Source: Escherichia coli
GTDB taxonomy: Bacteria > Pseudomonadota > Gammaproteobacteria > Enterobacterales > Enterobacteriaceae
DNA: 64,000 nt
Assembly: GCF_001677475.2 (NCBI RefSeq)
Contig: NZ_CP015229.1
Strand: one strand, 5' to 3'
Below the pieces are notes generated by a model. The model made no database searches. It was not told where the DNA came from and saw nothing but the letters and a program-made list of their open reading frames with translations. Below, piece by piece: positions 8,134 to 62,291 of this stretch (positions are counted from its first letter, which is position 1; each line of letters begins with the position of its first letter). Made by a program: the position numbers and the translations under genes.

Positions 8134-8193
8134 AAGTCGATACGACCTGTGCTATGATTCATAAATCACAACAATAACAACAGACTGAATCGA

Positions 8194-9716: not shown

Positions 9717-9759
9717 CGTCCTGATGCTGGACGTTCTAATTTTTAGCATGTGATACCTA

Positions 9760-29872: not shown

Positions 29873-30796
29873 TCAGAACGGCATTGATTTTCGAATAGCG
29901 TTAATCATCAACTGGCAACCAGAAGAGAACGTCGCATCTACGCGGGTCAGTATTCCAATCGGTTCGCCTGCACCATGTCCCGGAACAGGCAGGGCCACCA
30001 GAGTGGCATGACGCAGGTCGTCTTTTACAGCGCCAGAAGGGACAAACCACACGTAGTCGTATTCAACCGTAAGTTGACGAGATAGCGAAGCAGACAGCGT
30101 TTCGATACAACCCGAAGGAATTTTACATCCCTGGCTCTGCACTAATGCATCTGAATGCTGGCGTGGCGCAGTGCCTTCTGGTGATACAACGACCGGCCAT
30201 TCCAGCACCCGGCTTAGCGTTACGTTCTCCTGAAGTAGCGGGTGATTAGGGCGGACAACCAGCTTCAGCGATTCAAGAAACAGCAGTTCGTAATTAAGCC
30301 CGGTCATCAGTTCAGGATCTGACATCCGACCAATGCCGATATCGATTTCCCCGGTTTTTAAACCCGCCAGAATCATAGGGTTACTCATTGTCGCAACTTG
30401 CAAGGTCGTCTCTTTTTGTTGCTGATGAAACTGACCTATAACCGAAGGTAATATCCCCAGTGCCGCAGTAGGTAGTGCACCAACCCTGACGACATCATTA
30501 TTAAGACCTTCTTTACGATGAAGCGACTGTCCGGCAGTGTTGATGGCGTCAAGAACTCTGACTGCATGCGTTAAAAATTGCTCGCCGGGTAAGGTAAGTT
30601 GCGCCCCCTGACGACCACGCTCAAACAAGCGAGCGCCCGTCAGCTGCTCCAGTTCATTCAATGTCTTAGAGAGCGCAGGTTGACTCAAATTAAGGGTTTC
30701 AGCCGCGCGCCCCAAAGTTCCTTGTTGTGCGACAGCTACGAATGTATGAAGGTGGCGCAAACGGATGCGCTGACTAAACAGACTATTTTTTTCCAT
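29873..30796 (-). CDS. ydcI: LysR-family transcriptional regulator (307 aa)
   Basis: Start at ATG 30796 (MEKNSLFSQRIRLRHLHTFVAVAQQG) inside track ORF 29873..30937; N-terminal HTH. Confidence 0.85.
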   Translation of the reverse strand: MEKNSLFSQRIRLRHLHTFVAVAQQGTLGRAAETLNLSQPALSKTLNELEQLTGARLFERGRQGAQLTLPGEQFLTHAVRVLDAINTAGQSLHRKEGLNNDVVRVGALPTAALGILPSVIGQFHQQQKETTLQVATMSNPMILAGLKTGEIDIGIGRMSDPELMTGLNYELLFLESLKLVVRPNHPLLQENVTLSRVLEWPVVVSPEGTAPRQHSDALVQSQGCKIPSGCIETLSASLSRQLTVEYDYVWFVPSGAVKDDLRHATLVALPVPGHGAGEPIGILTRVDATFSSGCQLMINAIRKSMPF

Positions 30797-31012
30797 AAGC
30801 GATGTTAAAAACGAAGCGGTGTCGCTGACAAGTGAAGTTGTTTGATTATGATAACTTGATTGCAAAATATTATTAACAATTAAAGCAATCATGTTACAAC
30901 AAAATGGATAATATTGATGTTTTCGCGGCGAGATCACAGTTTGTAAATTCTTCCCGCCGGAGTGAATGCGGTTACCTACACTCCAGATTACTGACCACTG
31001 GAGGCAGATACT

Positions 31013-32356
31013 ATGGCGAACAGCATCACGGCGGATGAGATTCGGGAACAGTTTTCGCAGGTAATGTCAGCCATGTACCAGCAAGAAGTTCCGCAGTACG
31101 GCACGCTGCTGGAACTGGTAGCTGATGTGAATCTGGCTGTGCTGGAAAACAATCCTCAACTGCACGAAAAAATGGTAAATGCAGACGAGCTGGCGCGACT
31201 GAATGTTGAACGTCATGGGGCGATTCGCGTTGGGACTGCACAAGAGCTTGCTACTCTTCGGCGGATGTTTGCCATTATGGGGATGTACCCGGTGAGCTAT
31301 TACGATCTCTCGCAGGCGGGGGTGCCGGTACATTCGACAGCATTTCGGCCTATTGATGATGCTTCTCTGGCGCGTAATCCCTTCCGCGTTTTTACTTCAT
31401 TACTCCGACTTGAGCTTATCGAGAACGAAATTTTGCGCCAGAAAGCGGCGGAGATTCTGCGTCAGCGCGATATCTTCACCCCACGTTGTCGACAACTGTT
31501 AGAGGAATATGAGCAGCGGGGCGGTTTTAACGAAACACAGGCACAGGAGTTTGTGCAGGAAGCCCTGGAAACGTTTCGCTGGCACCAGTCAGCAACGGTA
31601 GATGAAGAAACCTATCGCGCCTTGCACAACGAACATCGGTTGATTGCTGATGTGGTCTGTTTTCCTGGATGCCATATCAACCACCTGACGCCACGTACGC
31701 TGGATATTGACCGGGTGCAGTCGATGATGCCTGAATGCGGAATTGAACCCAAAATTCTGATCGAGGGGCCGCCGCGCCGCGAGGTGCCGATTTTACTACG
31801 CCAGACCAGCTTTAAAGCACTGGAAGAGACGGTGTTGTTTGCGGGGCAGAAACAGGGCACGCATACCGCGCGCTTTGGTGAAATAGAGCAGCGTGGCGTG
31901 GCATTAACGCCGAAAGGGCGACAACTGTATGATGATCTTCTGTGTAACGCTGGAACCGGGCAGGATAATCTCACTCACCAAATGCATTTACAGGAAACCT
32001 TCCGCACTTTTCCTGACAGTGAGTTTTTAATGCGTCAGCAAGGGCTGGCATGGTTCCGGTACCGTCTGACGCCTTCGGGTGAGGCGCATCGTCAGGCGAT
32101 TCATCCTGGAGACGATCCACAGCCCTTAATTGAACGTGGTTGGGTAGTGGCGCAACCCATCACCTATGAAGATTTCTTGCCCGTTAGCGCGGCGGGGATC
32201 TTCCAGTCAAATCTGGGTAATGAAACGCAGACACGCAGTCACGGTAATGCCAGTCGCGAAGCATTTGAGCAGGCGTTGGGTTGTCCGGTTTTGAATGAGT
32301 TCCAGCTTTATCAGGAAGCGGAAGAACGCAGTAAACGTCGCTGTGGTTTGCTTTAA
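31013..32356 (+). CDS. ydcJ: DUF1338-family protein YdcJ
   Basis: Track ORF, 447 aa; matches remembered YdcJ; divergent from ydcI. Confidence 0.85.
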   Translation: MANSITADEIREQFSQVMSAMYQQEVPQYGTLLELVADVNLAVLENNPQLHEKMVNADELARLNVERHGAIRVGTAQELATLRRMFAIMGMYPVSYYDLSQAGVPVHSTAFRPIDDASLARNPFRVFTSLLRLELIENEILRQKAAEILRQRDIFTPRCRQLLEEYEQRGGFNETQAQEFVQEALETFRWHQSATVDEETYRALHNEHRLIADVVCFPGCHINHLTPRTLDIDRVQSMMPECGIEPKILIEGPPRREVPILLRQTSFKALEETVLFAGQKQGTHTARFGEIEQRGVALTPKGRQLYDDLLCNAGTGQDNLTHQMHLQETFRTFPDSEFLMRQQGLAWFRYRLTPSGEAHRQAIHPGDDPQPLIERGWVVAQPITYEDFLPVSAAGIFQSNLGNETQTRSHGNASREAFEQALGCPVLNEFQLYQEAEERSKRRCGLL

Positions 32357-32580
32357 ATTCTGACCATCCGCCTTTGCAAAAATTTGCCTGATTTTACAAT
32401 CGAATCAGGCTCATCCCATCGACATAAAAAAATTGCCAATTTATGCATATTCTCTGAGTTCAACAATTGGATTATTAATAAATATTGTCTAGAGTGAGCG
32501 GTCATAAATAAGCACTTTCTTGCCGCTGAAAACGACCAGCGCGGGACCATTCACAACACCAGAAGGACTCACTTTCAGGT

Positions 32581-34236
32581 ATGGATCGTAGACGATTTAT
32601 TAAAGGTTCAATGGCTATGGCCGCCGTGTGCGGTACCAGCGGCATTGCTTCTCTTTTTTCTCAGGCGGCATTCGCGGCAGATTCTGATATTGCCGACGGG
32701 CAAACTCAGCGTTTTGACTTCTCCATTCTACAGTCAATGGCGCACGACTTAGCGCAAACAGCGTGGCGTGGTGCGCCGCGTCCGTTACCTGACACGCTGG
32801 CGACAATGACGCCGCAGGCTTATAACAGTATTCAATACGACGCCGAAAAATCGCTCTGGCATAACGTTGAGATCCGTCAACTGGACGCTCAGTTCTTCCA
32901 TATGGGAATGGGATTCCGTCGCCGCGTTCGTATGTTTTCTGTTGATCCAGCAACACATCTGGCGCGTGAAATTCACTTTCGCCCGGAGTTGTTCAAATAC
33001 AACGATGCAGGTGTTGATACCAAACAATTAGAAGGGCAAAGCGATCTCGGCTTTGCCGGTTTTCGCGTGTTTAAAGCCCCCGAACTGGCGCGCCGTGATG
33101 TAGTATCATTCCTCGGCGCGAGTTATTTCCGCGCCGTTGATGATACATATCAATACGGTTTGTCCGCCCGCGGCCTGGCGATCGACACTTACACCGACAG
33201 TAAAGAAGAGTTCCCCGACTTTACCGCCTTCTGGTTTGATACGGTAAAACCGGGGGCAACCACCTTTACCGTTTATGCGTTGCTCGATAGCGCCAGCATT
33301 ACTGGTGCCTATAAGTTCACTATCCATTGTGAGAAAAGTCAGGTGATTATGGATGTGGAAAATCACCTGTATGCGCGCAAAGACATTAAACAGCTGGGCA
33401 TTGCGCCGATGACCAGCATGTTCAGCTGCGGTACTAATGAACGTCGGATGTGCGATACAATTCATCCGCAAATTCATGACTCTGATCGTCTGTCCATGTG
33501 GCGGGGCAACGGCGAGTGGATTTGCCGTCCGCTGAATAATCCGCAAAAATTGCAGTTCAATGCTTACACCGACAACAACCCGAAAGGGTTTGGTTTATTG
33601 CAACTGGATCGTGATTTCTCCCATTATCAGGACATTATGGGCTGGTATAACAAACGCCCAAGTCTGTGGGTGGAACCGCGTAACAAGTGGGGTAAGGGCA
33701 CCATCGGCCTGATGGAAATCCCAACAACGGGCGAAACGCTGGATAACATTGTCTGCTTCTGGCAGCCAGAAAAAGCTGTAAAAGCGGGTGATGAGTTTGC
33801 ATTCCAGTATCGTCTGTACTGGAGTGCGCAACCGCCTGTTCATTGCCCATTAGCGCGCGTTATGGCAACGCGTACCGGCATGGGCGGTTTCCCGGAAGGT
33901 TGGGCGCCAGGTGAACACTATCCCGAAAAATGGGCGCGTCGTTTTGCCGTCGATTTCGTTGGTGGTGATCTGAAAGCTGCCGCACCAAAAGGCATTGAGC
34001 CGGTGATTACGCTTTCCAGTGGGGAAGCGAAGCAAATCGAAATTCTCTATATTGAACCCATTGATGGTTATCGTATTCAGTTTGACTGGTATCCGACGTC
34101 GGACTCCACTGATCCGGTCGATATGCGGATGTATCTGCGTTGTCAGGGCGACGCTATCAGTGAAACATGGCTGTATCAGTATTTCCCGCCAGCGCCGGAT
34201 AAACGTCAGTATGTTGACGACCGCGTGATGAGTTAA
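32581..34236 (+). CDS. opgD: Glucans biosynthesis protein D (periplasmic, Tat signal)
   Basis: Track ORF, 551 aa; N-terminal twin-arginine motif [10 protein letters not shown]. Confidence 0.9.
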
Positions 34237-34375
34237 TTGTTTTTTCTTCGGCACCTTCTTCGGGAGGTGCTGTCTGGTTAAACACGATCCCGCTCGCATT
34301 TTTCCCTAAGTTAAATGAGTAATCTGATGGTGTGTATTTCAGATACAACTTGTCAGCCACTAACAGGGAGTGCGT

Positions 34376-34600
34376 ATGTTTCCAGAATACCGAGATTTAA
34401 TATCCCGTCTGAAAAACGAAAATCCTCGCTTTATGTCCTTGTTCGATAAACACAATAAACTTGATCATGAAATTGCCAGAAAGGAAGGTTCCGACGGTCG
34501 AGGTTACAATGCGGAAGTGGTCCGCATGAAAAAACAAAAGCTACAGTTAAAAGATGAGATGCTCAAAATCCTGCAGCAGGAGAGCGTCAAAGAGGTGTAA
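34376..34600 (+). CDS. ydcH: DUF465-family small protein YdcH (74 aa)
   Basis: Track ORF 34370..34600; start at ATG 34376 (MFPEYRDLISRLK). Confidence 0.8.
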   Translation: MFPEYRDLISRLKNENPRFMSLFDKHNKLDHEIARKEGSDGRGYNAEVVRMKKQKLQLKDEMLKILQQESVKEV

Positions 34601-34608
34601 ACTTTCCT

Positions 34609-34633
34609 AAGCCGCCAGCCAGGCGGCTTTTTT
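34609..34633 (+). terminator. Rho-independent terminator after ydcH
   Basis: Stem AAGCCGCC/GGCGGCTT with loop AGCC, then T6. Confidence 0.75.
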
Positions 34634-34662
34634 AACAACTGCATGGATTGACTGGAGATAAG

Positions 34663-35202
34663 ATGACTGAAACGATAAAAGTAAGCGAATCACTTGAATT
34701 ACATGCTGTTGCGGAAAGTCATGTCACACCTCTTTATCAGTTAATCTGTAAAAATAAAACCTGGTTACAGCAGTCGCTAAACTGGCCGCAGTTCGTTCAG
34801 AGTGAAGAGGACACGCGAAAAACGGTGCAGGGTAATGTGATGTTGCATCAACGCGGCTATGCCAAAATGTTCATGATTTTCAAAGAAGATGAACTTATCG
34901 GCGTTATCTCGTTTAATCGAATTGAACCACTGAATAAAACCGCTGAAATCGGCTACTGGCTGGACGAATCTCATCAGGGGCAGGGGATCATTTCTCAGGC
35001 GTTGCAGGCACTGATTCATCATTACGCCCAGTCTGGTGAACTTAGACGCTTCGTGATCAAATGTCGGGTGGACAATCCGCAAAGCAACCAGGTCGCTTTG
35101 CGCAATGGTTTTATTCTTGAAGGTTGCCTGAAACAGGCTGAGTTCCTGAATGATGCCTATGATGATGTGAACTTATACGCGCGTATTATCGATTCACAAT
35201 AA
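34663..35202 (+). CDS. rimL: Ribosomal-protein-L7/L12 serine acetyltransferase (GNAT)
   Basis: Start at ATG 34663 ([14 protein letters not shown]) inside track ORF 34648..35202; 179 aa. Confidence 0.85.
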
Positions 35203-36174
35203 CCCTGCCAGCGGCGTTCGCGTAATGCGCTCCTCGCCGTTAATGACTTTTGGACCACGGACATGAACCGTGTCGCCATCAAAGGCTTCAACGACGGCGT
35301 GGTCGGTTAACTCCACATGGTTTTCAATTATCACCGCATCTGTAATACGGCTCTTACCTTGTATTACAACGTGCTCGTCGAGCAGAATCGGTCCGCCACG
35401 TACCACGGCATTTCCGCCAATCAAGACATGATGTTTTAACACACAATTACCTTCCACAATGGCATATTCCGCCACCTGCGAACTGTAATGAATCGTCGGA
35501 ATGGCATCTTCTTCTATGCCAGCTTTCACCTGCGCGTGACCGTAGACTTTAGCGCAATCGCATAGCCATACGTTGTTCTCTTCATTACCTTCAACACTGG
35601 CAAAATCAAAAACTTCGGCGCGATGTTCAATAAAAGCATACCGGACGACGGCATCGCCATAAATTTGTGCCTGGTGGACAATACGCGAGGCGCTAACCCT
35701 CGCGCGATCATAAATTTGTAGCAGGAGTTGATGGTCGGGCGTTAAGCCTTGTGCGGCGACGATCATAGAATGTTGATCAATTAAGGCGTGACCAAATATT
35801 CTACATTGACCGCAAACTAATGAGTCACGAATGGTGACGCTGTCACTTATATATGCACCCTGGCTGATTTCACTATTATCGATCCAGACATTATCCGTTG
35901 CGTATACCTCTCCCCACAGCACGCTTATGCCGGTGATACGCGTATTCCCGGAAATCACCGCTCCGCCGAACGCAATAGCATTCTGGTCGTAAATCCAGCA
36001 ATTTCCTTCCTGTGCTAACACCGTTTCGCAATCGATCCAGCCGCCAGCGGTTCCTGCTATCACATCGTTAAAATCGCTCATGGCGATAATCTGCCGTAAT
36101 AACACACTTTTTTTAGTGCCATCATCCTGATAACTAAAGGCTCGCTGTTCTTCACTTAGACGATATTTGCGCAT
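35194..36174 (-). CDS. ydcK: Hexapeptide-repeat (left-handed beta-helix) protein YdcK
   Basis: Track ORF, 326 aa; 3' end overlaps rimL by 9 bp (convergent). Confidence 0.85.
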
Positions 36175-36297
36175 AGCGTTTTCCCACAGGTGACTTACTA
36201 TAACCGTAGCAAATTCTGCGGCTCTGGCTATGCTCGAGAAAATTCCATAAAATGCATTTCAAATATACTTTATAAATTAAACAAAATGAGTAAGAAG

Positions 36298-37290
36298 ATG
36301 CAGAGCGATAAAGTGCTCAATTTGCCGGCAGGCTACTTTGGTATTGTGTTGGGGACGATAGGGATGGGATTTGCCTGGCGCTATGCCAGCCAGGTTTGGC
36401 AGGTCAGCCACTGGTTAGGGGATGGGCTGGTGATTCTGGCGATGATCATCTGGGGATTATTAACTAGCGCATTTATTACCCGACTCATACGCTTTCCGCA
36501 TAGCGTGCTGGCAGAAGTGCGCCATCCAGTGATGAGCAGTTTTGTGAGTTTGTTTCCGGCAACGACGATGCTGGTGGCGATTGGTTTTGTTCCGTGGTTT
36601 CGCCCACTGGCGGTGTGCCTGTTCAGTTTTGGTGTCGTGGTTCAGTTGGCTTATGCCGCCTGGCAAACTGCGGGATTATGGCGCGGATCTCACCCTGAAG
36701 AAGCTACCACGCCTGGACTGTATCTGCCGACAGTTGCCAACAACTTTATCAGCGCAATGGCCTGTGGTGCGTTGGGCTACACCGACGCCGGTCTGGTGTT
36801 TTTAGGCGCAGGCGTTTTCTCATGGCTAAGCCTTGAACCGGTGATCTTGCAGCGTCTGCGCAGTTCGGGAGAATTACCCACGGCACTGCGGACATCACTC
36901 GGCATTCAGCTCGCTCCTGCGCTGGTGGCCTGTAGTGCCTGGCTGAGCGTCAACGGCGGCGAGGGTGACACGCTGGCGAAAATGCTTTTCGGTTATGGAC
37001 TGCTGCAACTGCTGTTTATGCTACGTCTGATGCCATGGTATCTCTCCCAGCCATTTAATGCTTCATTCTGGAGTTTCTCGTTCGGCGTATCTGCACTGGC
37101 AACCACCGGTTTGCATCTGGGGAGTGGCAGCGATAATGGATTTTTCCATACGCTGGCGGTGCCGCTGTTTATCTTTACCAATTTTATTATTGCAATACTG
37201 CTCATCCGTACTTTTGCGCTTCTGATGCAGGGAAAATTGTTAGTCAGAACCGAGCGCGCCGTTTTAATGAAAGCAGAGGACAAAGAATGA
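36298..37290 (+). CDS. tehA: Tellurite resistance protein TehA (C4-dicarboxylate transporter/SLAC1 family)
   Basis: Start at ATG 36298 ([19 protein letters not shown]) inside track ORF 36190..37290; 330 aa; polytopic membrane protein. Confidence 0.9.
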
Positions 37291-37880
37291 TCATTCGTGA
37301 CGAAAACTATTTTACTGATAAATATGAATTAACCCGTACACACTCTGAAGTACTGGAAGCGGTGAAAGTGGTTAAACCGGGTAAAACGCTGGATCTGGGC
37401 TGTGGCAATGGTCGTAACAGTCTTTACCTGGCAGCCAATGGTTATGATGTTGACGCATGGGATAAAAATGCCATGAGTATCGCCAACGTCGAGCGCATTA
37501 AATCCATTGAAAATCTGGATAATTTACACACCCGGGTCGTTGATCTGAATAACCTCACATTTGATGGACAGTACGATTTTATTCTTTCGACTGTGGTGCT
37601 GATGTTCCTTGAGGCTAAAACCATCCCAGGGCTGATTGCCAATATGCAACGTTGCACGAAACCTGGCGGTTACAACCTGATTGTGGCGGCGATGGATACC
37701 GCCGATTATCCATGTACCGTCGGCTTCCCGTTTGCCTTCAAAGAGGGAGAATTACGTCGATATTACGAAGGCTGGGAGAGGGTGAAATACAATGAAGACG
37801 TCGGCGAGCTGCACCGCACCGACGCCAACGGTAATCGTATTAAACTGCGTTTCGCCACGATGCTGGCACGTAAAAAATGA
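37287..37880 (+). CDS. tehB: Tellurite methyltransferase TehB (SAM-dependent)
   Basis: Track ORF, 197 aa; methyltransferase motif [11 protein letters not shown]; overlaps tehA stop. Confidence 0.9.
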
Positions 37881-38182
37881 TCCGGTAAGAACAAAGCGCG
37901 TGAAAATTCCCCACGCTGAGATGGTTTACTGTTCTTCTTTTCGGTAAGCATATTTTTTATTGAAGGGATGTGAAATTAATCACAGTAGTCGAAGTTTTTT
38001 AGCAGCTTAACATACTGAAATTTAACTACTGATGATTGACTTAGCCCCTTTTTCGGCATTGACTATATCGTCTGAAAAGGGGCTAAAAAATTTATTTTCA
38101 CCAACACTTTTTTTGCCACAACACGAAGCGGCGCTTTTTGCTATAACTTAAAAAGTAATATAATCATCTCAGGAAACTATTC

Positions 38183-38851
38183 ATGCGTACCACATCATTT
38201 GCGAAAGTTGCAGCTTTATGCGGCTTGTTGGCTCTGTCTGGTTGTGCCTCTAAAATCACCCAGCCAGATAAATATTCTGGTTTTTTAAACAATTACTCTG
38301 ATTTAAAAGAAACAACCTCAGCAACAGGTAAACCTGTTTTACGTTGGGTAGACCCGAGTTTTGATCAAAGCAAATATGACAGCATTGTCTGGAACCCAAT
38401 CACTTATTATCCGGTACCAAAACCTTCTACCCAGGTAGGGCAGAAAGTTCTGGATAAAATTTTGAACTATACAAACACCGAAATGAAAGAAGCGATAGCG
38501 CAGCGTAAACCACTGGTTACCACCGCTGGGCCGCGTAGTCTGATTTTCCGTGGGGCCATTACCGGTGTAGATACCAGCAAAGAAGGGCTGCAATTCTATG
38601 AAGTGGTTCCTGTTGCATTAGTGGTTGCAGGGACGCAAATGGCTACAGGCCACCGTACCATGGATACTCGCCTCTATTTTGAAGGTGAACTGATTGATGC
38701 AGCGACGAATAAACCGGTTATCAAAGTCGTTCGTCAGGGCGAAGGTAAAGACCTGAATAACGAAAGTACGCCAATGGCTTTCGAAAATATTAAACAAGTT
38801 ATTGATGACATGGCGACCGATGCCACCATGTTTGACGTTAACAAAAAGTAG
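38183..38851 (+). CDS. ydcL: Lipoprotein YdcL
   Basis: Track ORF, 222 aa; lipobox LALSG-C. Confidence 0.85.
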   Translation: MRTTSFAKVAALCGLLALSGCASKITQPDKYSGFLNNYSDLKETTSATGKPVLRWVDPSFDQSKYDSIVWNPITYYPVPKPSTQVGQKVLDKILNYTNTEMKEAIAQRKPLVTTAGPRSLIFRGAITGVDTSKEGLQFYEVVPVALVVAGTQMATGHRTMDTRLYFEGELIDAATNKPVIKVVRQGEGKDLNNESTPMAFENIKQVIDDMATDATMFDVNKK

Positions 38852-38859
38852 TTCCAGAC

Positions 38860-38887
38860 GCGCCGTCGTTAGATGGCGCTTTTTATT
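38860..38887. terminator. Bidirectional terminator between convergent ydcL and ydcO
   Basis: 8-bp stem GCGCCGTC/GATGGCGC (one G-U pair) then T-run. Confidence 0.55.
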
Positions 38888-40058
38888 ATCGGTTTCTGTC
38901 AGCGATTAAATTCAACACCACGTAACAAACGCCTCCGGCAATTAAACCCCAAAACGCAGAACCAATCCCGACCAGTGTCAATCCACTTGCCGTTACCAGA
39001 AATGCCACCACCGCCGCGTCGCGCTCACGCTCATTATGCAGCGCCTGATACAAACTGCCGCCAATGGTACTTAACAGCGCCAGACCTGCCAGCATCTGGA
39101 TCCAACTTACGGGCAGGGCAGCCATCATCCCGGTAATGGCACTACCAAACAGACCTGCGAGCAAATAGAAAATGCCGGCAACGGCAGCTGCCAGCCAACG
39201 TTGATCTTTATCCGGATGCGCTTCCGGGCTTTGGCAAATAGCCGCGGTGATTGCCGCAATACCGACGGAATAAACGCCGAAAGGGGAAAAAACCAGTGCC
39301 AGCAATCCAGTAAATACAATTAATGGCGAAACAGGAGCTGAATATCCGGCTGCTTTCATTGCTGCGATACCCGGTGCGTTTTGCGATGCCATCGTCACCA
39401 GAAAAAGGGGGAGTGCAACGCTCAGGCTGTGAGCAAACGAAAAATCAGGGGTAATATAAGTGGGGAGAACGGGTTTAAAGACAATATCAGTTGTGACAAC
39501 GTCACCTTGCGCGATAACGATCACGATCCCAATAATCATCGCGGCAATTACCGCATAGCGCGGCGCAACGGCCCTGGTTGCCAGCCATACCAGCAACATA
39601 CTGCCACACAACGTAAATTGACCATCCAGACTGGCAAACGCCTGTAAACCAAAGCGTAATAAAATCCCGGCAAGCATTGCCGCCGCAAGCGAGTGTGGAA
39701 TAATGCGCATCAGACGAGCAAAGAGTCCCGTTATGCCGCAGAGGACTATTAACGCGTTGGTGACAATAAAAACGCCGATGGCTTCGTTAAGTGTTAGTCC
39801 CTGCAATCCGGTGACCAACAAAGCCGCGCCAGGCGTTGACCATGCGGTGAGAACAGGTACGCGATACCATAATGTCAGAGTCAGCGTACTGACGCCCATT
39901 GCCAGCCCCAGCGCCGTCATCCAGCCAGAGATTTGTGCAGTGGTGGCTCCGGCGACAATCGCTGCTTGCCAGATTATTGCCGCTGAACTGGCGTAGCCAA
40001 TTAATACCGCCAGAAACCCCGCCAGTAGCGTGGGTGGAGGAATAGAAAACAGACGCAT
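38886..40058 (-). CDS. ydcO: BenE-family inner-membrane transporter YdcO
   Basis: Start at ATG 40058 (MRLFSIPPPTLLAGF) inside track ORF 38886..40319; about 390 aa; highly hydrophobic. Confidence 0.8.
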   Translation of the reverse strand: MRLFSIPPPTLLAGFLAVLIGYASSAAIIWQAAIVAGATTAQISGWMTALGLAMGVSTLTLTLWYRVPVLTAWSTPGAALLVTGLQGLTLNEAIGVFIVTNALIVLCGITGLFARLMRIIPHSLAAAMLAGILLRFGLQAFASLDGQFTLCGSMLLVWLATRAVAPRYAVIAAMIIGIVIVIAQGDVVTTDIVFKPVLPTYITPDFSFAHSLSVALPLFLVTMASQNAPGIAAMKAAGYSAPVSPLIVFTGLLALVFSPFGVYSVGIAAITAAICQSPEAHPDKDQRWLAAAVAGIFYLLAGLFGSAITGMMAALPVSWIQMLAGLALLSTIGGSLYQALHNERERDAAVVAFLVTASGLTLVGIGSAFWGLIAGGVCYVVLNLIADRNR

Positions 40059-40149
40059 AGTCACCTCGTGCGTTATAACGTACAGGTACCGTAGCATTTG
40101 TCCGTTATAACGCACAAGTGATAAACTTCCGTTTTGCCGGAGGAGTCGC

Positions 40150-40686
40150 ATGGAAAATCTCGCTCGCTTTTTATCCACCACACTTAAACAACTACGCCAG
40201 CAGCGCGGCTGGAGTCTTTCGCGATTGGCAGAAGCGACGGGCGTTTCTAAAGCGATGTTAGGGCAGATTGAGCGTAATGAATCCAGCCCGACGGTCGCGA
40301 CATTATGGAAAATTGCCACCGGGTTGAATGTGCCATTTTCGACATTTATTTCTCCGCCGCAGTCCGCAACGCCTTCAGTTTATGATCCACAACAGCAGGC
40401 GATGGTGATCACTTCGCTGTTTCCTTATGATCCACAACTCTGCTTTGAACACTTCTCGATTCAGATGGCATCTGGTGCAATAAGCGAATCGACGCCCCAT
40501 GAGAAGGGGGTAATCGAACATGTCGTCGTCATTGATGGACAACTTGATCTGTGCGTTGATGGTGAATGGCAGAGCCTTAATTGTGGGGAAGGCGCTCGAT
40601 TTGCTGCAGACGCCACGCATGTCTATCGTAATCGTGGGGAGCAAATCGTACATTTTCATTCCCTCATCCATTACCCGCGCAGTTAA
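40150..40686 (+). CDS. ydcN: XRE-family HTH regulator with C-terminal cupin domain
   Basis: Track ORF, 178 aa; HTH region LSRLAEATGVSKAMLGQIERNE; divergent from ydcO. Confidence 0.85.
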   Translation: MENLARFLSTTLKQLRQQRGWSLSRLAEATGVSKAMLGQIERNESSPTVATLWKIATGLNVPFSTFISPPQSATPSVYDPQQQAMVITSLFPYDPQLCFEHFSIQMASGAISESTPHEKGVIEHVVVIDGQLDLCVDGEWQSLNCGEGARFAADATHVYRNRGEQIVHFHSLIHYPRS

Positions 40687-40758
40687 GCGGGAAAACTATT
40701 TCGCAACGTCGCGCTTGTGGCTAAAATAGCCGCCATTTTTCAGCTACTGGATAAGAAT

Positions 40759-42720
40759 GTGACCGTATCTTCTCATCGACTTGAACTGTTAAGCCCGGCA
40801 CGCGATGCCGCCATTGCCCGCGAAGCTATTTTGCACGGTGCCGATGCTGTTTATATCGGCGGCCCTGGTTTTGGTGCCCGTCATAATGCCAGTAATAGCC
40901 TGAAAGATATTGCCGAGCTGGTGCCGTTTGCCCATCGTTATGGTGCAAAAATTTTCGTCACGCTTAACACCATTCTGCATGATGATGAGCTTGAACCCGC
41001 GCAACGGCTGATTACCGACCTCTACCAGACCGGCGTCGATGCGCTGATTGTTCAGGATATGGGGATTCTGGAACTTGATATTCCGCCGATTGAACTGCAC
41101 GCCAGTACGCAGTGCGACATTCGCACGGTAGAGAAAGCGAAGTTCCTTTCTGATGTTGGCTTCACGCAGATTGTGCTGGCACGAGAGCTGAATCTTGAGC
41201 AGATCCGCGCGATTCACCAGGCCACGGACGCGACCATTGAATTCTTTATTCATGGCGCACTGTGCGTGGCCTATTCGGGTCAGTGCTACATTTCTCATGC
41301 GCAAACAGGGCGTAGCGCCAACCGTGGCGATTGCTCGCAGGCGTGCCGTTTGCCATACACATTGAAAGACGATCAGGGGCGGGTGGTTTCCTATGAAAAA
41401 CATCTGCTGTCGATGAAAGATAACGATCAGACTGCCAACCTCGGCGCGCTGATTGATGCTGGCGTACGCTCCTTCAAGATTGAAGGGCGTTACAAAGATA
41501 TGAGCTACGTGAAGAATATCACCGCCCATTATCGCCAGATGCTGGATGCCATTATTGAAGAACGTAGCGATTTGGCGCGAGCTTCATCCGGTCGTACTGA
41601 GCACTTCTTCGTACCGTCGACGGAAAAAACCTTCCATCGTGGCAGCACCGACTACTTTGTTAACGCGCGTAAAGGCGATATTGGCGCATTCGATTCACCG
41701 AAATTTATCGGCCTGCCGGTGGGTGAAGTATTGAAAGTGGCGAAAGATCATCTTGATGTTGAGGTTACCGAACCGCTGGCTAACGGCGATGGACTGAACG
41801 TAATGATTAAGCGTGAAGTCGTCGGCTTTCGTGCCAACACGGTAGAGAAAACTGGGGAAAATCAGTACCGCGTCTGGCCAAATGAGATGCCAGTGGAGCT
41901 GCACAAAATTCGCCCGCACCATCCGCTTAATCGCAACCTCGACCATAACTGGCAGCAGGCGTTGACCAAAACCTCCAGCGAACGTCGGGTGGCGGTAGAC
42001 ATTGAACTGGGCGGCTGGCAGGAACAACTGATTCTGACTCTGACCAGCGAAGAGGGCGTCAGTATCACTCATACGCTGGACGGGCAGTTCGACGAAGCGA
42101 ATAACGCCGAAAAAGCACTCCTCAATCTGAAAGAGGGATTGTCGAAGCTTGGGCAAACCCTCTATTACGCCCGCGATGTGCAAATTAATTTGCCGGGGGC
42201 GCTGTTTGTACCAAACAGTCTGTTAAACCAGTTCCGCCGTGAAGCTGCCGACATGCTGGATGCTGCACGTCTTGCCAGTTACCAGCGGGGCAGCCGTAAA
42301 CCGGTTGCTGATCCTGCGCCGGTTTATCCGCAAACGCATCTGAGTTTCCTCGCGAACGTATACAACCAGAAAGCGCGTGAATTTTATCATCGCTATGGTG
42401 TGCAGCTGATTGACGCGGCGTATGAGGCACATGAAGAGAAGGGCGAAGTCCCGGTGATGATCACCAAGCATTGTCTGCGCTTTGCCTTTAATCTGTGCCC
42501 GAAACAGGCGAAAGGCAATATCAAAAGCTGGAAGGCGACGCCAATGCAACTGGTTAACGGCGATGAAGTGTTAACGCTGAAATTTGATTGCCGCCCATGC
42601 GAGATGCACGTCATTGGCAAAATCAAAAATCACATACTGAAAATGCCGTTACCGGGAAGCGTAGTGGCATCCGTAAGTCCGGATGAGCTGCTGAAAACAT
42701 TGCCGAAGCGAAAAGGGTAA
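40759..42720 (+). CDS. rlhA: Peptidase U32-family protein (YdcP/RlhA)
   Basis: Track ORF 40717..42720; start placed at GTG 40759 to match remembered 653 aa (ATG 40717 is the alternative); Cys-rich C-terminus. Confidence 0.8.
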   Translation: MTVSSHRLELLSPARDAAIAREAILHGADAVYIGGPGFGARHNASNSLKDIAELVPFAHRYGAKIFVTLNTILHDDELEPAQRLITDLYQTGVDALIVQDMGILELDIPPIELHASTQCDIRTVEKAKFLSDVGFTQIVLARELNLEQIRAIHQATDATIEFFIHGALCVAYSGQCYISHAQTGRSANRGDCSQACRLPYTLKDDQGRVVSYEKHLLSMKDNDQTANLGALIDAGVRSFKIEGRYKDMSYVKNITAHYRQMLDAIIEERSDLARASSGRTEHFFVPSTEKTFHRGSTDYFVNARKGDIGAFDSPKFIGLPVGEVLKVAKDHLDVEVTEPLANGDGLNVMIKREVVGFRANTVEKTGENQYRVWPNEMPVELHKIRPHHPLNRNLDHNWQQALTKTSSERRVAVDIELGGWQEQLILTLTSEEGVSITHTLDGQFDEANNAEKALLNLKEGLSKLGQTLYYARDVQINLPGALFVPNSLLNQFRREAADMLDAARLASYQRGSRKPVADPAPVYPQTHLSFLANVYNQKAREFYHRYGVQLIDAAYEAHEEKGEVPVMITKHCLRFAFNLCPKQAKGNIKSWKATPMQLVNGDEVLTLKFDCRPCEMHVIGKIKNHILKMPLPGSVVASVSPDELLKTLPKRKG

Positions 42721-42768
42721 AACGCCAGTTTTCTGGTTACTCACCACTCATTGAATCTGCATGATATT

Positions 42769-42804
42769 GCCTGCCGGGTAAGGCGTCATGCCGCATCCGG
42801 CATC
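42769..42804. repeat. REP (repetitive extragenic palindromic) element
   Basis: Reverse complement GCCGGATGCGGCATGACGCCTTACCCGGCAGG resembles the remembered REP consensus; between ydcP and yncJ. Confidence 0.6.
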
Positions 42805-42811
42805 AAACGAC

Positions 42812-43042
42812 TCAACGTTGTCCTGCTTCTGGTTTGCGCGATTTTTGCCAGTAAAAATGCTCGCGCAAACCTTCCGCCGACTCTTCCGCCACAGCACGCA
42901 ATTCATCGCTGTCCGCTTCATGACGTAGCTGATGATCCACATTCTTTACCCACATAAATTCATGTCCTTTGTGCCCTGCCATGAGTTGTCCTGAGAACAG
43001 CGCACACGTTAATAAGACAACCGATAACGCCTTCGTAAACAT
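42812..43042 (-). CDS. yncJ: Small secreted protein YncJ (DUF2554)
   Basis: Track ORF, 76 aa; N-terminal signal peptide. Confidence 0.8.
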   Translation of the reverse strand: MFTKALSVVLLTCALFSGQLMAGHKGHEFMWVKNVDHQLRHEADSDELRAVAEESAEGLREHFYWQKSRKPEAGQR

Positions 43043-43263
43043 CCCGCCACCTTTTTCTCACCTTTTGCCGCTATGATGCCGATCGTTTCTTGAGGTTCTT
43101 ATTCAGTTTTGCAAATTAGCGCAAAGAAATTCTGGAATCTTCCTTCCTGATTTTGCATTGCATTCTGCCGTTGCGGCGATTAAGTGCTATTTTCGAGCAA
43201 ATTACACACGGAGGTAAACACTAATGTTTACTTTGTTGATATACTCAGCGGCAGGGAGGCGAT

Positions 43264-43440
43264 GTGAAACAAAGCGAGTTCAGACGTTGGCTCGAATCTC
43301 AGGGCGTCGATGTAGCGAATGGCAGCAACCATTTAAAACTAAGGTTTCACGGGAGGCGCAGTGTCATGCCGCGTCACCCCAGCGAAGAGATTAAAGAATC
43401 ATTGCGTCAAGCCATTCTGAAACTACTCAGTTTGAGTTAA
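43264..43440 (+). CDS. hicA: Type II toxin HicA (mRNA interferase), 58 aa
   Basis: Not in ORF track; GTG start 43264, hand-translated (M)KQSEFRRWLESQGVDVANGSNHLKLRFHGRRSVMPRHPSEEIKESLRQAILKLLSLS. Confidence 0.8.
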   Translation: MKQSEFRRWLESQGVDVANGSNHLKLRFHGRRSVMPRHPSEEIKESLRQAILKLLSLS

Positions 43441-43464
43441 TCGCCCATTAAAAAGGTTAATGAC

Positions 43465-43902
<438 letters not shown>

Positions 43903-43980
43903 TAACAGTTAATGAAAAGTTGTCATTTTTAACAACTGATATAGACTGCCGAATCACCTGCACATAATAACGATTCGATA

Positions 43981-45387
43981 ATGAAAAAATACCAGCAGCT
44001 TGCAGAACAATTACGCGAGCAGATTGCGTCGGGTATCTGGCAACCCGGCGATCGTTTGCCTTCGTTGCGTGACCAGGTGGCGCTTTCTGGCATGAGCTTT
44101 ATGACTGTCAGCCATGCCTATCAGTTGCTCGAAAGTCAGGGATATATTATCGCGCGACCGCAGTCGGGTTATTACGTTGCGCCACAGGCAATAAAAATGC
44201 CGAAAGCGCCAGTCATTCCAGTCACTCGAGATGAAGCAGTCGATATCAACACCTATATTTTTGATATGTTGCAGGCCAGTCGCGATCCGTCGGTCGTTCC
44301 GTTTGCCTCGGCCTTTCCCGACCCGCGACTTTTCCCCCTCCAACAACTCAACCGCTCGCTGGCGCAGGTAAGCAAAACCGCCACGGCGATGAGCGTGATT
44401 GAAAATTTACCGCCAGGAAACGCAGAACTGCGTCAGGCTATTGCTCGTCGCTATGCCTTACAGGGCATCACTATTTCTCCTGATGAAATTGTCATTACCG
44501 CCGGGGCGTTAGAGGCATTAAACCTCAGTTTACAAGCGGTAACGGAACCAGGCGATTGGGTGATAGTAGAGAATCCTTGTTTCTACGGCGCGTTGCAGGC
44601 GCTGGAGCGGTTACGGCTGAAGGCGTTATCGGTGGCGACGGACGTTAACGAAGGGATTGATCTCAAGGCGCTGGAACTGGCGTTGCAGGAGTATCCGGTG
44701 AAAGCGTGCTGGCTGATGACTAATAGCCAGAATCCACTCGGATTTACCTTGACGCCGCAGAAAAAAGCGAGGCTGGTAGCGTTGCTCAATCAGTACAACG
44801 TAACGCTGATTGAAGATGATGTTTACAGCGAACTTTATTTTGGACGGGAAAAACCGCTGCCTGCGAAAGCGTGGGATCGCCACGATGGCGTTTTGCATTG
44901 CTCTTCGTTTTCGAAATGTCTGGTGCCTGGTTTTCGTATTGGTTGGGTCGCCGCCGGAAAACATGCACGTAAAATTCAACGCTTGCAGTTGATGAGTACG
45001 CTTTCCACCAGCTCACCGATGCAGCTTGCGCTGGTGGATTACCTTTCCACGCGCCGATACGACGCCCATCTTCGTCGCCTGCGTCGCCAGCTTGCGGAAC
45101 GTAAACAACGTGCCTGGCAGGCACTGCTGCGTTATCTGCCTGCGGAAGTTAAAATTCATCATAATGACAGCGGTTATTTTCTCTGGCTGGAGCTCCCCGA
45201 GCCGTTAGATGCCGGCGAATTAAGCCTGGCGGCACTGACGCATCATATCAGTATTGCGCCGGGTAAAATGTTTTCTACCGGTGAAAACTGGTCACGTTTT
45301 TTTCGTTTTAATACCGCGTGGCAGTGGGGAGAACGTGAAGAACAGGCGGTAAAACAATTAGGCAAACTTATTCAAGAACGGCTGTAA
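43981..45387 (+). CDS. ydcR: MocR-type regulator (GntR HTH fused to PLP-aminotransferase-like domain)
   Basis: Track ORF, 468 aa; N-terminal HTH then aminotransferase fold. Confidence 0.85.
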   Translation: MKKYQQLAEQLREQIASGIWQPGDRLPSLRDQVALSGMSFMTVSHAYQLLESQGYIIARPQSGYYVAPQAIKMPKAPVIPVTRDEAVDINTYIFDMLQASRDPSVVPFASAFPDPRLFPLQQLNRSLAQVSKTATAMSVIENLPPGNAELRQAIARRYALQGITISPDEIVITAGALEALNLSLQAVTEPGDWVIVENPCFYGALQALERLRLKALSVATDVNEGIDLKALELALQEYPVKACWLMTNSQNPLGFTLTPQKKARLVALLNQYNVTLIEDDVYSELYFGREKPLPAKAWDRHDGVLHCSSFSKCLVPGFRIGWVAAGKHARKIQRLQLMSTLSTSSPMQLALVDYLSTRRYDAHLRRLRRQLAERKQRAWQALLRYLPAEVKIHHNDSGYFLWLELPEPLDAGELSLAALTHHISIAPGKMFSTGENWSRFFRFNTAWQWGEREEQAVKQLGKLIQERL

Positions 45388-45631
45388 TAGCGTTTAATTT
45401 AATTCCTCTTAGATTAGGTAATATGAATTTCGAATAGCAGTCATATTTCCTAACTCCTTGTCTATACTCCAGAAGATAACCTTACAGACGGCATAATGCG
45501 CGGTAGCTCACAACCTGATTAAATTTTCTCAGGGGCGAAGGTGTGCCTGCTAGCCGCCGTCTATGGTTAAACAAGGAGATATTTTTACGGCACGGCGGCT
45601 GAACAATTAATTACGACAGGAGTAAGACTTT

Positions 45632-46777
45632 ATGAGCAAGACATTTGCCCGCAGCAGCCTGTGTGCGCTCACCATGACAATAATGACCGCTCACGCCGCC
45701 GAACCGCCTACCAATTTAGATAAACCGGAAGGGCGACTGGATATTATCGCCTGGCCGGGATACATCGAACGCGGACAAACTGATAAACAATACGACTGGG
45801 TAACGCAGTTCGAAAAAGAGACAGGCTGCGCGGTGAATGTTAAAACCGCCGCGACTTCCGATGAAATGGTCAGTCTGATGGCCAAAGGGGGTTACGATCT
45901 GGTTACGGCATCCGGCGATGCCTCGCTGCGTTTGATTATGGGCAAACGCGTGCAGCCGATTAATACCGCCTTGATTCCCAACTGGAAAACGCTCGATCCG
46001 CGCGTGGTTAAAGGCGACTGGTTTAACGTTGGCGGCAAAGTTTACGGCACACCTTACCAATGGGGGCCGAACCTGCTGATGTACAACACTAAAACCTTCC
46101 CGACGCCGCCGGATAGCTGGCAAGTGGTTTTTGTTGAGCAAAATCTGCAGGACGGCAAGAGCAATAAAGGCCGCGTTCAGGCTTATGATGGCCCTATCTA
46201 CATTGCGGACGCTGCGTTGTTCGTTAAAGCCACTCAGCCGCAGTTGGGCATCAGCGATCCGTATCAACTCACCGAAGAACAGTATCAGGCGGTGCTGAAA
46301 GTGCTGCGCGATCAACATAGTTTGATCCATCGCTACTGGCATGACACTACCGTGCAAATGAGCGATTTCAAAAACGAGGGTGTGGTCGCTTCCAGTGCCT
46401 GGCCCTATCAGGCCAACGCCTTGAAAGCCGAAGGTCAGCCTGTCGCTACCGTTTTCCCGAAGGAGGGCGTTACCGGTTGGGCTGACACCACTATGCTACA
46501 TAGCGAAGCGAAACATCCGATTTGCGCCTACAAATGGATGAACTGGTCATTAACGCCAAAAGTGCAGGGCGATGTGGCGGCCTGGTTTGGTTCGTTACCA
46601 GTCGTGCCGGAAGGGTGTAAAGCCAGTTCGTTATTAGGCGAGAAAGGTTGTGAAACAAACGGTTTTAACTATTTCGATAAAATAGCCTTCTGGAAAACGC
46701 CTATAGCAGAAGGGGGCAAGTTTGTTCCCTACAGTCGCTGGACGCAGGATTACATTGCCATTATGGGCGGTCGCTAA
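45632..46777 (+). CDS. ydcS: ABC transporter periplasmic substrate-binding protein (polyamine-type)
   Basis: Track ORF, 381 aa; signal peptide; first gene of ydcSTUV. Confidence 0.85.
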   Translation: MSKTFARSSLCALTMTIMTAHAAEPPTNLDKPEGRLDIIAWPGYIERGQTDKQYDWVTQFEKETGCAVNVKTAATSDEMVSLMAKGGYDLVTASGDASLRLIMGKRVQPINTALIPNWKTLDPRVVKGDWFNVGGKVYGTPYQWGPNLLMYNTKTFPTPPDSWQVVFVEQNLQDGKSNKGRVQAYDGPIYIADAALFVKATQPQLGISDPYQLTEEQYQAVLKVLRDQHSLIHRYWHDTTVQMSDFKNEGVVASSAWPYQANALKAEGQPVATVFPKEGVTGWADTTMLHSEAKHPICAYKWMNWSLTPKVQGDVAAWFGSLPVVPEGCKASSLLGEKGCETNGFNYFDKIAFWKTPIAEGGKFVPYSRWTQDYIAIMGGR

Positions 46778-46794
46778 CTTCGCTGGGGTGCTTT

Positions 46795-47808
46795 ATGACG
46801 TACGCAGTGGAGTTTGACAACGTCTCGCGGTTGTACGGTGACGTGCGCGCAGTAGATGGCGTCAGTATTGCGATAAAAGATGGTGAGTTCTTCTCTATGC
46901 TGGGGCCGTCCGGCTCCGGCAAAACCACCTGCCTGCGCCTGATTGCTGGATTCGAACAGCTTTCCGGCGGGGCTATCTCTATCTTTGGTAAACCCGCCAG
47001 CAATCTGCCACCGTGGGAGCGGGATGTTAATACCGTTTTCCAGGACTATGCGCTGTTTCCCCATATGTCGATTCTCGATAACGTGGCCTACGGGTTAATG
47101 GTCAAAGGTGTGGAGAAAAAAAAGCGTTACATCATGGCGCAAGAGGCGCTGGAAAAAGTGGCGCTGGGTTTTGTTCAGCAACGTAAACCGTCACAACTTT
47201 CTGGTGGTCAGCGCCAGCGGGTTGCTATCGCCAGAGCATTAGTAAATGAACCGCGCGTATTATTGCTGGATGAACCACTCGGCGCGCTGGATCTCAAGTT
47301 GCGTGAGCAGATGCAGCTGGAACTGAAAAAGCTGCAACAGTCTCTCGGTATCACTTTTATCTTCGTTACCCACGATCAGGGCGAAGCGTTATCGATGTCC
47401 AATCGTGTGGCGGTTTTCAATAATGGACGCATTGAGCAGGTCGATTCCCCGCGCGATCTCTATATGCGCCCGCGCACGCCGTTTGTTGCCGGGTTCGTTG
47501 GTACATCGAATGTTTTTGATGGACTGATGGCAGAGAAACTTTGTGGCATGACGGGAAGCTTCGCCCTGCGACCGGAACATATCCGCCTCAACACCCCTGG
47601 TGAACTGCAGGCCAATGGCACGATCCAGGCGGTGCAATATCAGGGCGCGGCGACCCGTTTTGAACTGACACTGAGCGGCGGTGAAAAACTGCTGGTTAGT
47701 CAGGCCAATATGACGGGGGAAGAACTCCCCGCTACGCTTACTCCAGGGCAACAAGTGATGGTTTCCTGGGCGCGCGATGTGATGGTGCCACTGGTTGAGG
47801 AGAGGTGA
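46795..47808 (+). CDS. ydcT: ABC transporter ATP-binding protein
   Basis: Track ORF, 337 aa; Walker A GPSGSGKTT, signature LSGGQRQR, Walker B LLLDEP. Confidence 0.9.
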   Translation: MTYAVEFDNVSRLYGDVRAVDGVSIAIKDGEFFSMLGPSGSGKTTCLRLIAGFEQLSGGAISIFGKPASNLPPWERDVNTVFQDYALFPHMSILDNVAYGLMVKGVEKKKRYIMAQEALEKVALGFVQQRKPSQLSGGQRQRVAIARALVNEPRVLLLDEPLGALDLKLREQMQLELKKLQQSLGITFIFVTHDQGEALSMSNRVAVFNNGRIEQVDSPRDLYMRPRTPFVAGFVGTSNVFDGLMAEKLCGMTGSFALRPEHIRLNTPGELQANGTIQAVQYQGAATRFELTLSGGEKLLVSQANMTGEELPATLTPGQQVMVSWARDVMVPLVEER

Positions 47809-48750
47809 ATGGCGATGAACGTATTGCAATCACCTTCACGTCCGGGTGTTGGGAAAATATCAGGTTTTTTCTGGCGGAATCCGGGGCTGGGGCTGTTTTT
47901 GCTGCTGCTTGGCCCGCTAATGTGGTTTGGCATTGTCTATTTCGGCTCGCTGCTGACACTGTTATGGCAGGGATTTTATACCTTTGACGATTTCACCATG
48001 TCGGTAACGCCGGAACTGACGCTGGCGAATATCCGTGCGCTGTTTAATCCGGCGAATTACGACATCATTCTCCGCACGCTGACTATGGCTGTGGCAGTCA
48101 CTATCGCCAGCGCCATTCTGGCTTTTCCAATGGCGTGGTATATGGCGCGCTATACCAGCGGGAAAATGAAAGCGTTTTTTTATATTGCGGTAATGTTGCC
48201 GATGTGGGCGAGCTACATTGTTAAAGCCTATGCCTGGACGTTATTGCTGGCAAAAGATGGCGTGGCTCAGTGGTTTTTACAACATCTTGGGCTGGAACCA
48301 CTGCTGACTGCGTTCCTTACATTACCTGCGGTGGGCGGCAATACGCTGTCAACTTCCGGGCTGGGGCGCTTTCTGGTGTTTCTCTATATCTGGCTGCCGT
48401 TCATGATCCTGCCCGTGCAGGCGGCGCTTGAGCGTTTGCCGCCGTCATTGTTGCAGGCGTCAGCTGATCTCGGCGCACGTCCACGACAAACCTTTCGCTA
48501 TGTGGTGCTGCCGCTGGCGATCCCGGGTATTGCCGCTGGCTCTATCTTTACCTTCTCACTCACACTGGGCGATTTTATCGTCCCGCAGCTGGTTGGCCCG
48601 CCAGGATATTTTATCGGCAATATGGTTTATTCCCAGCAGGGGGCGATTGGCAATATGCCGATGGCGGCGGCATTCACCCTGGTGCCGATTGTTCTCATCG
48701 CACTGTACCTGGCGTTCGTGAAACGTCTGGGAGCGTTCGATGCACTCTGA
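47809..48750 (+). CDS. ydcU: ABC transporter permease
   Basis: Track ORF, 313 aa; hydrophobic; starts immediately after ydcT stop. Confidence 0.85.
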
Positions 48751-49534
48751 ACGCGCACCGTTTTTCCTCAAACTGGCGGCCTGGGGCGGCGTTGTTTTCC
48801 TACATTTTCCCATCCTGATAATCGCCGCCTATGCGTTTAACACTGAAGATGCGGCGTTTAGTTTTCCACCGCAGGGCCTGACGCTGCGCTGGTTTAGCGT
48901 GGCAGCACAGCGTAGTGATATTCTTGATGCCGTGACACTGTCACTTAAAGTGGCGGCGCTGGCGACATTAATGGCGCTGGTGTTAGGGACGCTGGCAGCT
49001 GCCGCGCTGTGGCGACGAGACTTTTTCGGCAAAAACGCCATTTCGCTGTTACTGCTGCTGCCCATTGCGCTGCCGGGCATTGTCACTGGTCTGGCGTTAT
49101 TAACCGCCTTTAAAACCATCAATCTGGAGCCGGGATTTTTCACCATCGTGGTCGGTCATGCGACTTTTTGTGTAGTTGTGGTGTTTAACAATGTCATCGC
49201 CCGTTTTCGCCGCACCTCGTGGAGTCTGGTTGAGGCGTCAATGGATCTTGGGGCCAATGGCTGGCAAACCTTCCGCTACGTAGTGTTGCCGAATCTTAGT
49301 TCGGCGTTACTGGCAGGAGGAATGCTGGCGTTTGCCTTGTCGTTCGATGAAATCATCGTTACGACTTTTACGGCAGGTCATGAACGAACGTTACCGTTGT
49401 GGTTGCTCAATCAGCTTGGGCGACCGCGTGATGTACCGGTAACCAACGTGGTGGCACTGCTGGTTATGTTGGTAACAACCTTGCCGATCCTGGGGGCCTG
49501 GTGGCTAACCCGCGAAGGCGACAATGGTCAATAA
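48740..49534 (+). CDS. ydcV: ABC transporter permease
   Basis: Track ORF, 264 aa; overlaps ydcU 3' end. Confidence 0.85.
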
Positions 49535-49555
49535 CCACTGATACAGGAATATGCT

Positions 49556-60882: not shown

Positions 60883-61013
60883 ATGTCATTAAGGAGAATG
60901 ACATCTGGTGAATTAACATTGGCCAGATCGATTTTTGAGAATACAATTGATTATAGCAAGGTATGGATCCACAATGAAAAATATTTGCCTGGTCAAGGGG
61001 AAAGAACAGCGAT
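60883..61013 (+). pseudogene. 5' fragment of a host ORF interrupted by the prophage insertion
   Basis: ATG 60883 with GGAAGGA RBS; MSLRRMTSGELTLARSIFENTIDYSKVWIHNEKYLPGQGERTAI then reads straight into the Mu-type end at 61014 (track ORF 60844..61083 is the chimera). Confidence 0.4.
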
Positions 61014-61190
61014 TGTATTGATTCACTTGAAGTACGAAAAAAACCGGGAGGACATTGGATTATTCGGGATTTGGCGGGATTAGATTTAGTGGGGCTTGCA
61101 AGCCTGTAGGACAGATTTTAGCCGTTACATCTTGAAACGCGAAAGATTGTTGGAAACAGCTTTTGATTCATTAAAGACACGAAAAGCAAT
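61014..61190 (+). repeat. Prophage attL with transposase end-binding sites L1, L2 and L3
   Basis: L1 about 61019-61040 (TGATTCACTTGAAGTACGAAAA), L2 about 61128-61147 (CTTGAAACGCGAAAGA), L3 about 61164-61186 (TGATTCATTAAAGACACGAAAAG); terminal 5'-TG. Confidence 0.8.
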
Positions 61191-61352
61191 TACTTCACGC
61201 ATCATTTCAAGTACAGCTTCAAAAATGCTTCAAAAACGGTAACAACCAGGCTTTCGGCAAGTGATGTGTGTCAAAAACAATCATCACTGTTTGGGTATCT
61301 TACATATGTAATTACCTAGAGTGAAGTTTATGTCTTAGCTATTACCTGGTTG

Positions 61353-62057: not shown

Positions 62058-62062
62058 ATGAA

Positions 62063-62284: not shown

Positions 62285-62291
62285 GTGCGCT

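Follow-up and report, generated by a model that had tools for sequence, protein, structure and literature searches.

The ydcL/ydcO junction of an Escherichia coli genome as an IS609-free site

IS609 and related elements

Elements of the IS200/IS605 family, such as IS608, ISDra2 and the Geobacillus ISGst, insert 3' of a short specific motif, make no target-site duplication and have no terminal inverted repeats, and the motif together with the right flank forms the TAM and the target of the element's own TnpB (PMC8612924, PMC10055086). The guide of the TnpB omega-RNA corresponds to the DNA that borders the right end, the TAM is the transposon target motif, and in the characterised elements TnpB cuts the vacant "donor joint" (PMC8612924; PMC10055086). 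For the TnpB of IS608, a lack of activity has been reported (PMC10055086). In its mode of insertion, its ends and the arrangement of motif and right flank, IS609 resembles these relatives. It differs from IS608 and ISDra2 in its motif, TTTAT, and its tnpA has decayed to a pseudogene in all the copies that we sampled, that of K-12 included. The target motif of IS608 is TTAC and that of ISDra2 is TTGAT; the right end of IS608 finishes in TCAA, like that of IS609.

In MG1655, IS609 is annotated at 1503161..1504908 (1,748 bp), between ydcL (b1431) and ydcO (b1433); its genes are insQ (b1432) and yncK, a pseudogene left from tnpA. The first-pass annotation of the sequence studied here placed insQ (formerly ydcM) between these two genes in K-12, which the MG1655 annotation confirms, and called it a transposase gene, which has to be corrected. 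InsQ is a TnpB-type RNA-guided nuclease (NF040570, 380 bits), homologous to the ISDra2 TnpB structures 8EXA and 8H1J (E 2e-54), and the transposase gene of the element is tnpA. The K-12 InsQ is full length, and in a single alignment, with the best PDB match, a TnpB-like nuclease designed by AI, its acidic residues appear to align at the presumed positions of the three RuvC motifs (GLDAGV, IEDL, NADVN). Among the occupied genomes sampled, the K-12 copies and four of the five others have an intact insQ. In the fifth, STEC2018-607 (locus 4700..5908), an internal stop interrupts the gene, which is annotated as a pseudogene, so that not every copy at the site has kept TnpB.

The subterminal hairpins of the left and right ends of IS609 have the loop TCCTTCAG in common. 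The right-end region of the K-12 copy folds with z = -3.3, and the left end with z = -0.2, no better than shuffled sequences. With a tnpA pseudogene of IS200/IS605 type, a TnpB gene, subterminal hairpins and no inverted repeats, IS609 carries the hallmarks of the family.

An independent copy of IS609 adjoins yidH. Its left junction reads ...AAATTTAT followed by CCGGTGCGCC, and its right end is ...GGATGTCAA, i.e. the TTTAT left flank and the GTCAA right end are those of the K-12 copy. The same left flank and right end at both sites indicate that IS609 targets TTTAT, or at least TTAT, and enters on its 3' side without duplicating it. TTTAT is present in all three instances examined: the site described below, the yidH-site copy and a relic in the genome MOD1-EC7003. 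The yidH-site element, found in Res13-Lact-PEB14-36 (locus 1501..3253), is a second chromosomal copy, 97.7% identical to the K-12 copy; its tnpA is frameshifted, whereas its tnpB is intact and the palindrome at its left end perfect. As this copy has no working tnpA, it may have reached its new site with TnpA acting in trans, or the gene may have decayed in parallel.

In full-text literature searches, IS609 and insQ returned incidental mentions in resistance genomics or an unrelated "INSQ", and no data on InsQ activity. A TnpB survey that covers E. coli mentions neither IS609 nor ydcO.

The junction in the window and in K-12

The window is the whole stretch of E. coli DNA that was analysed, 64,000 nt long. 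According to the ORF listing and the sequence, ydcL and ydcO are convergent, and the distance of about 34 bp given at first is exact, Table 1. The same 34-bp spacing is annotated in seven sampled IS-free E. coli genomes, where the last base of ydcL is locus position 4252 or 4169 and ydcO starts at 4287 or 4204. K-12 does not share it: 1,779 bp separate the two genes in MG1655, IS609 included, and the K-12-derived O16:H48 genome has the same arrangement as MG1655.

Table 1. Features of the ydcL/ydcO junction; positions are those of the window.
Feature	Position	Strand	Description
ydcL	38183..38851	+	DUF3313 lipoprotein gene; PF11769 E 4e-63; TAG stop 38849..38851; ydcL also in matching E. coli annotations
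Spacer	38852..38885		34 bp between the stop codons of convergent ydcL and ydcO
ydcL terminator hairpin (predicted)	38860..38879	+	8-bp stem GCGCCGTC/GATGGCGC, loop GTTA, 6 of 8 pairs G-C
T-rich tail	38880..38889	+	TTTTTATTAT, directly after the hairpin stem
TTTAT	38882..38886	+	directly 5' of the IS609 insertion point, 38886/38887
Right flank	38887..38906	+	TATCGGTTTCTGTCAGCGAT, identical to the 20 nt after the IS609 right end in K-12
ydcO	38886..40061	-	BenE-family transporter, 390 aa; TIGR00843 705 bits, PF03594; TAA stop 38888..38886

We compared 9 kb of MG1655 with the window by BLAST. Positions 1..4161 of the K-12 segment correspond to window 34725..38886 (98.4% identity) and positions 5910..9001 to window 38887..41978 (96.5% identity). 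The part of K-12 without a counterpart in the window, 4162..5909, is exactly the annotated IS609, and the flanks are otherwise collinear. The suggestion in the first-pass annotation that the site is IS-free is thus borne out to the base, the alignment breaking exactly at the insertion point with the whole element absent. The left junction in K-12 is ...CTTTTTAT followed by CCGGTGCGCC. Over a longer stretch, K-12 reads ...GGCGCTTTTTAT, then IS609 from CCGGTGCGCC to GGAGGATGTCAA, then TATCGGTTTCTG..., and in the window GGCGCTTTTTAT is joined directly to TATCGGTTTCTG; the boundaries are unambiguous. Both IS609 flanks, with TTTAT and more than 20 nt of the right flank identical to K-12, are present and abutted, without duplication, deletion or footprint. 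BLAST found no IS609 or IS200 sequence anywhere in the 64,000 nt.

The insertion point lies inside the stop codon of ydcO (TA/A on the - strand). In MG1655, the stop of ydcO is a TGA within the right end of IS609, whereas the window gene has its own TAA. YdcO ends in ...ADRNR in the window and in ...ADRNRY in MG1655, i.e. the K-12 protein is one residue, a terminal Tyr, longer. The MG1655 annotation lets ydcO overlap IS609 by 4 nt, consistent with a split stop codon. The annotated length of ydcO is 1176 nt in K-12 and most genomes with IS609, and 1173 nt in most IS-free genomes, being longer where an upstream start is called. An 87-aa ORF at 38873..39136 on the + strand, antisense to ydcO, was rejected as spurious.

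The hairpin downstream of ydcL

The spacer is best read as the native 3' end of ydcL, with a GC-rich hairpin and a T-run that form a predicted intrinsic terminator. The stop codon of ydcO stands at the end of this T-run, which also supplies TTTAT on the + strand. The hairpin begins 8 nt past the ydcL stop and resembles known intrinsic terminators in its GC-rich 8-bp stem, its 4-nt loop and the T-run that follows, and its position is conserved across Enterobacteriaceae. The predicted folding energy of the 61-nt hairpin region is -16.3 kcal/mol, more stable than that of shuffled sequences (z = -2.6).

In the first-pass annotation the two genes were said to share this hairpin as a common terminator. 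That description fits ydcL, on whose strand the hairpin is canonical and where alone the terminator scan flagged it. It does not fit ydcO: after the stem the - strand reads GTCTGGAACTAC, without a T-run, and the scan reports no site on that strand. We therefore rejected a bidirectional terminator common to both genes. Bidirectional terminators differ from the window hairpin in having an upstream A-tract; as it is missing here, the ydcO transcript would have no U-run. Many Enterobacter loci do have an AAAA-stem-TTTT symmetry, whereas the window hairpin is unidirectional by sequence criteria.

A pattern scan of one genome per species gave 55 enterobacterial ydcL loci. A hairpin and T-run stand directly 3' of ydcL in most of them, are missing or weak in a few, and vary in sequence. 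Pair-preserving double changes occur within the GCGCCATC...GATGGCGC type of hairpin. The stem is GCGCCGTC...GACGGCGC in E. albertii, with a compensatory G-C pair, and compensatory changes are also found in Enterobacter sp. ENT03 (GCGCCACC...GGTGGCGC) and Citrobacter youngae (GCACCATC...GATGGTGC). Double changes that preserve pairing across these loci argue that the hairpin is not a chance feature, and its conservation and covariation support a functional intrinsic terminator for ydcL. Base 38865 is G in the window and A in all other sampled E. coli; it forms a G.U wobble with 38874 and represents the one-sided intermediate.

A tblastn search of the same 55 loci found no InsQ homolog. Direct adjacency of ydcL and ydcO is confined to Escherichia and to a small number of Citrobacter (55-160 bp); most other genera (Enterobacter, Lelliottia, Kosakonia, most Citrobacter) have about 2 kb of non-TnpB DNA between them. 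E. albertii NBRC 107761 (locus 3150..3275) keeps ydcL and its terminator and is without ydcO and sutR, about 70 bp taking the place of window 38899..40650.

Occupancy, history and a predicted TnpB target

Presence or absence of IS609 between ydcL and ydcO is an already known, ordinary strain polymorphism, and the element is annotated in the K-12 reference. We searched 5,426 complete E. coli genomes and counted the site as occupied by IS609 when at least 80% of a ydcL-IS609-ydcO query was found in one place; 3,251 genomes qualify. The junction is contiguous or nearly so, within the joining tolerance, in 2,110 genomes, 90 of which carry IS200C in the T-run of the ydcL terminator, so that by difference about 2,020 (37%) are truly bare. 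O157:H7 and O55:H7 have the bare junction. IS200C (709 bp) is inserted after one of 38881..38884, the exact base being ambiguous, i.e. 2-5 bp to the left of the IS609 point. An example is strain UID2309220007 (locus 2285..2995), with an Rfam match to STnc490 in the 5' region.

The bare junction is not confined to E. coli. Representatives of four other Escherichia species, 87-89% identical to the window (E. whittamii, Escherichia sp. E1V33, and the strains E69 and SCPM-O-B-8794, both titled E. coli), have it with the same hairpin and the same ydcO stop. Their T-run reads TTCTGAT, TTCTTAT or TTCGGAT; among the ydcL loci compared, TTTAT is found only in E. coli and in MOD1-EC7003, of a sister lineage.

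The element could in principle be present in the organism and have dropped out of the sequence, through assembly collapse or through a deletion, by recombination or in the laboratory. Mis-assembly of IS elements does occur at times, but nothing specific points to this here, and the same base-perfect junction recurs in about 2,000 independent complete genomes and in the four other species. After a recombinational deletion, a hybrid relic like that of MOD1-EC7003 should remain; the window has none, and its ydcO ends with the native TAA. We regard such a loss as extremely improbable.

We built a neighbour-joining tree from 4.9 kb of flanking DNA of 15 haplotypes of E. coli, which is a recombining species, with a numpy bootstrap. 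The six haplotypes that bear IS609 form one clade (78% bootstrap), with the window outside it, and this clade is sister to the bare O157:H7 (99%). The basal group of E. coli is bare as well. The window stands alone on a long branch, differing by 1.25-1.6% from the closest haplotypes sampled; a tree of the left flank joins it to other bare genomes (72-80% bootstrap). In the left-flank tree, MOD1-EC7003 is the sister of E. coli sensu stricto, with 100% bootstrap and at a distance of 5.5%.

In MOD1-EC7003 (locus 1..310), 46 bp that combine the left and right ends of IS609 (CCAGTGCGCCTTATATCCCCGTCCTTCAG/TGCGTGGAGGATGCCAA) stand exactly at the IS609 insertion point, directly after TTTTTAT. Beyond this relic come 26 bp from the 3' region of ydcO, joined to the 3' end of sutR, so that the genome lacks ydcO and most of sutR. 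The relic has an intact-type left end (CCTTATATCCCCG), and all six occupied E. coli copies sampled have the degenerate left arm CCGTAAAACCCCA. These different left arms suggest separate insertions, and the IS609 of MOD1-EC7003 and that of the K-12-type clade were probably gained independently, as judged from their sequences.

The alternative is that the lineage of the window once carried IS609 and lost it by TnpA-mediated scarless excision, the present junction being a donor joint. Elements of the IS200/IS605 family excise without a scar, as part of their normal chemistry (PMC10055086), and sequence alone thus cannot tell a site that was never occupied from one precisely vacated. The relic that the sister MOD1-EC7003 has at this point would allow an ancient insertion, older than the A/B1-type clade and followed by several losses, and the genomes that best match the window over 20 kb (97.8%) bear IS609. 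Such a history, however, takes one gain and at least three independent precise losses (in the basal group, in the B2-like group with the window and in the O157 lineage), and two independent gains are more parsimonious than one ancient gain with at least three scarless losses. The contrast between the left end of the relic and the degenerate arm of the occupied copies also speaks against a single insertion; with tnpA decayed in all sampled copies, TnpA would be needed in trans, and an intact TnpB is expected to counteract loss. Excision from the window lineage is therefore unlikely in our judgement. Both the flank tree and the bare outgroups speak for a single gain of IS609 by the ancestor of the K-12-type clade, and for an ancestral state retained in the window. 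The window junction is thus very probably the unoccupied, ancestral state of a site that IS609 entered in other lineages, K-12 among them.

According to the model that we favour, the window lineage would never have received IS609, its flanks having always been directly abutted. In the ancestor of one clade of E. coli the element would have entered 3' of TTTAT without duplication, splitting the ydcO stop codon (TA/A) and adding one Tyr to YdcO. We infer that it entered as single-stranded DNA. The GC skew is positive on the + strand across the whole window, a leading-strand composition, so that the strand with TTTAT is the lagging-strand template. This fits the replication-coupled bias of the IS200/IS605 family that Ton-Hoang et al. 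reportedly described in 2010.

TTTAT and the following TATCGGTTTCTGTCAGCGAT are identical in the window to the flanks of IS609 in K-12. By analogy with characterised TnpB systems, window 38882..38906, in which TATCGGTTTCTG starts the part after TTTAT, is the predicted target of the K-12 InsQ and its omega-RNA, taking the 20-nt guide match as a nominal length. At gathering thresholds, an Rfam search of the K-12 and IS200C loci gave no omega-RNA family on IS609 and only STnc490 inside IS200C, and a permissive scan of window 37000..41000 gave chance-level matches only. The bare allele provides the exact sequence for testing whether E. coli InsQ cuts its own vacant site, and the occupied and empty alleles are a clean natural pair that defines the ends of IS609, the TTTAT target and the one-codon change of ydcO.

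The T-run has received IS609 at the identical base in the A/B1-type clade and in MOD1-EC7003, and IS200C a few bases away in the 90 genomes. A speculative reading, to which we give little credence, is that the ydcL terminator T-run is a recurrent landing pad of IS200/IS605 elements and that TnpB homing into empty sites contributes to the 60% occupancy. If so, DNA exchange between occupied and empty strains could convert bare sites through homing driven by TnpB.

Compared with the 5,426 complete E. coli genomes, the window reaches at most 97.8% identity over 20 kb (30000..50000) and 98.8% over 1.6 kb (38100..39700), and it seems to represent a lineage with little sampling; the flank trees place its long branch within E. 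coli sensu stricto. About 8.9 kb of K-12 (1465063..1474004), with ynbG and the ydbA pseudogene that IS2D and IS30C interrupt, has no counterpart in the window; here 13 bp after paaY (9718..9730) lead directly into the K-12 sequence from 1474005, the last bases of ydbA and the spacer before pdxI. Downstream of ansP, at about 61000..64000, synteny with K-12 ends, and the window matches the end of a Mu-like transposable prophage from about 61.0 kb. The ORF 61353..61877 on the - strand encodes a Mu DNA-binding domain (PF02316, E 6e-51). In other E. coli the same prophage end of about 3 kb adjoins pduA, potE, nrdE or yehR.
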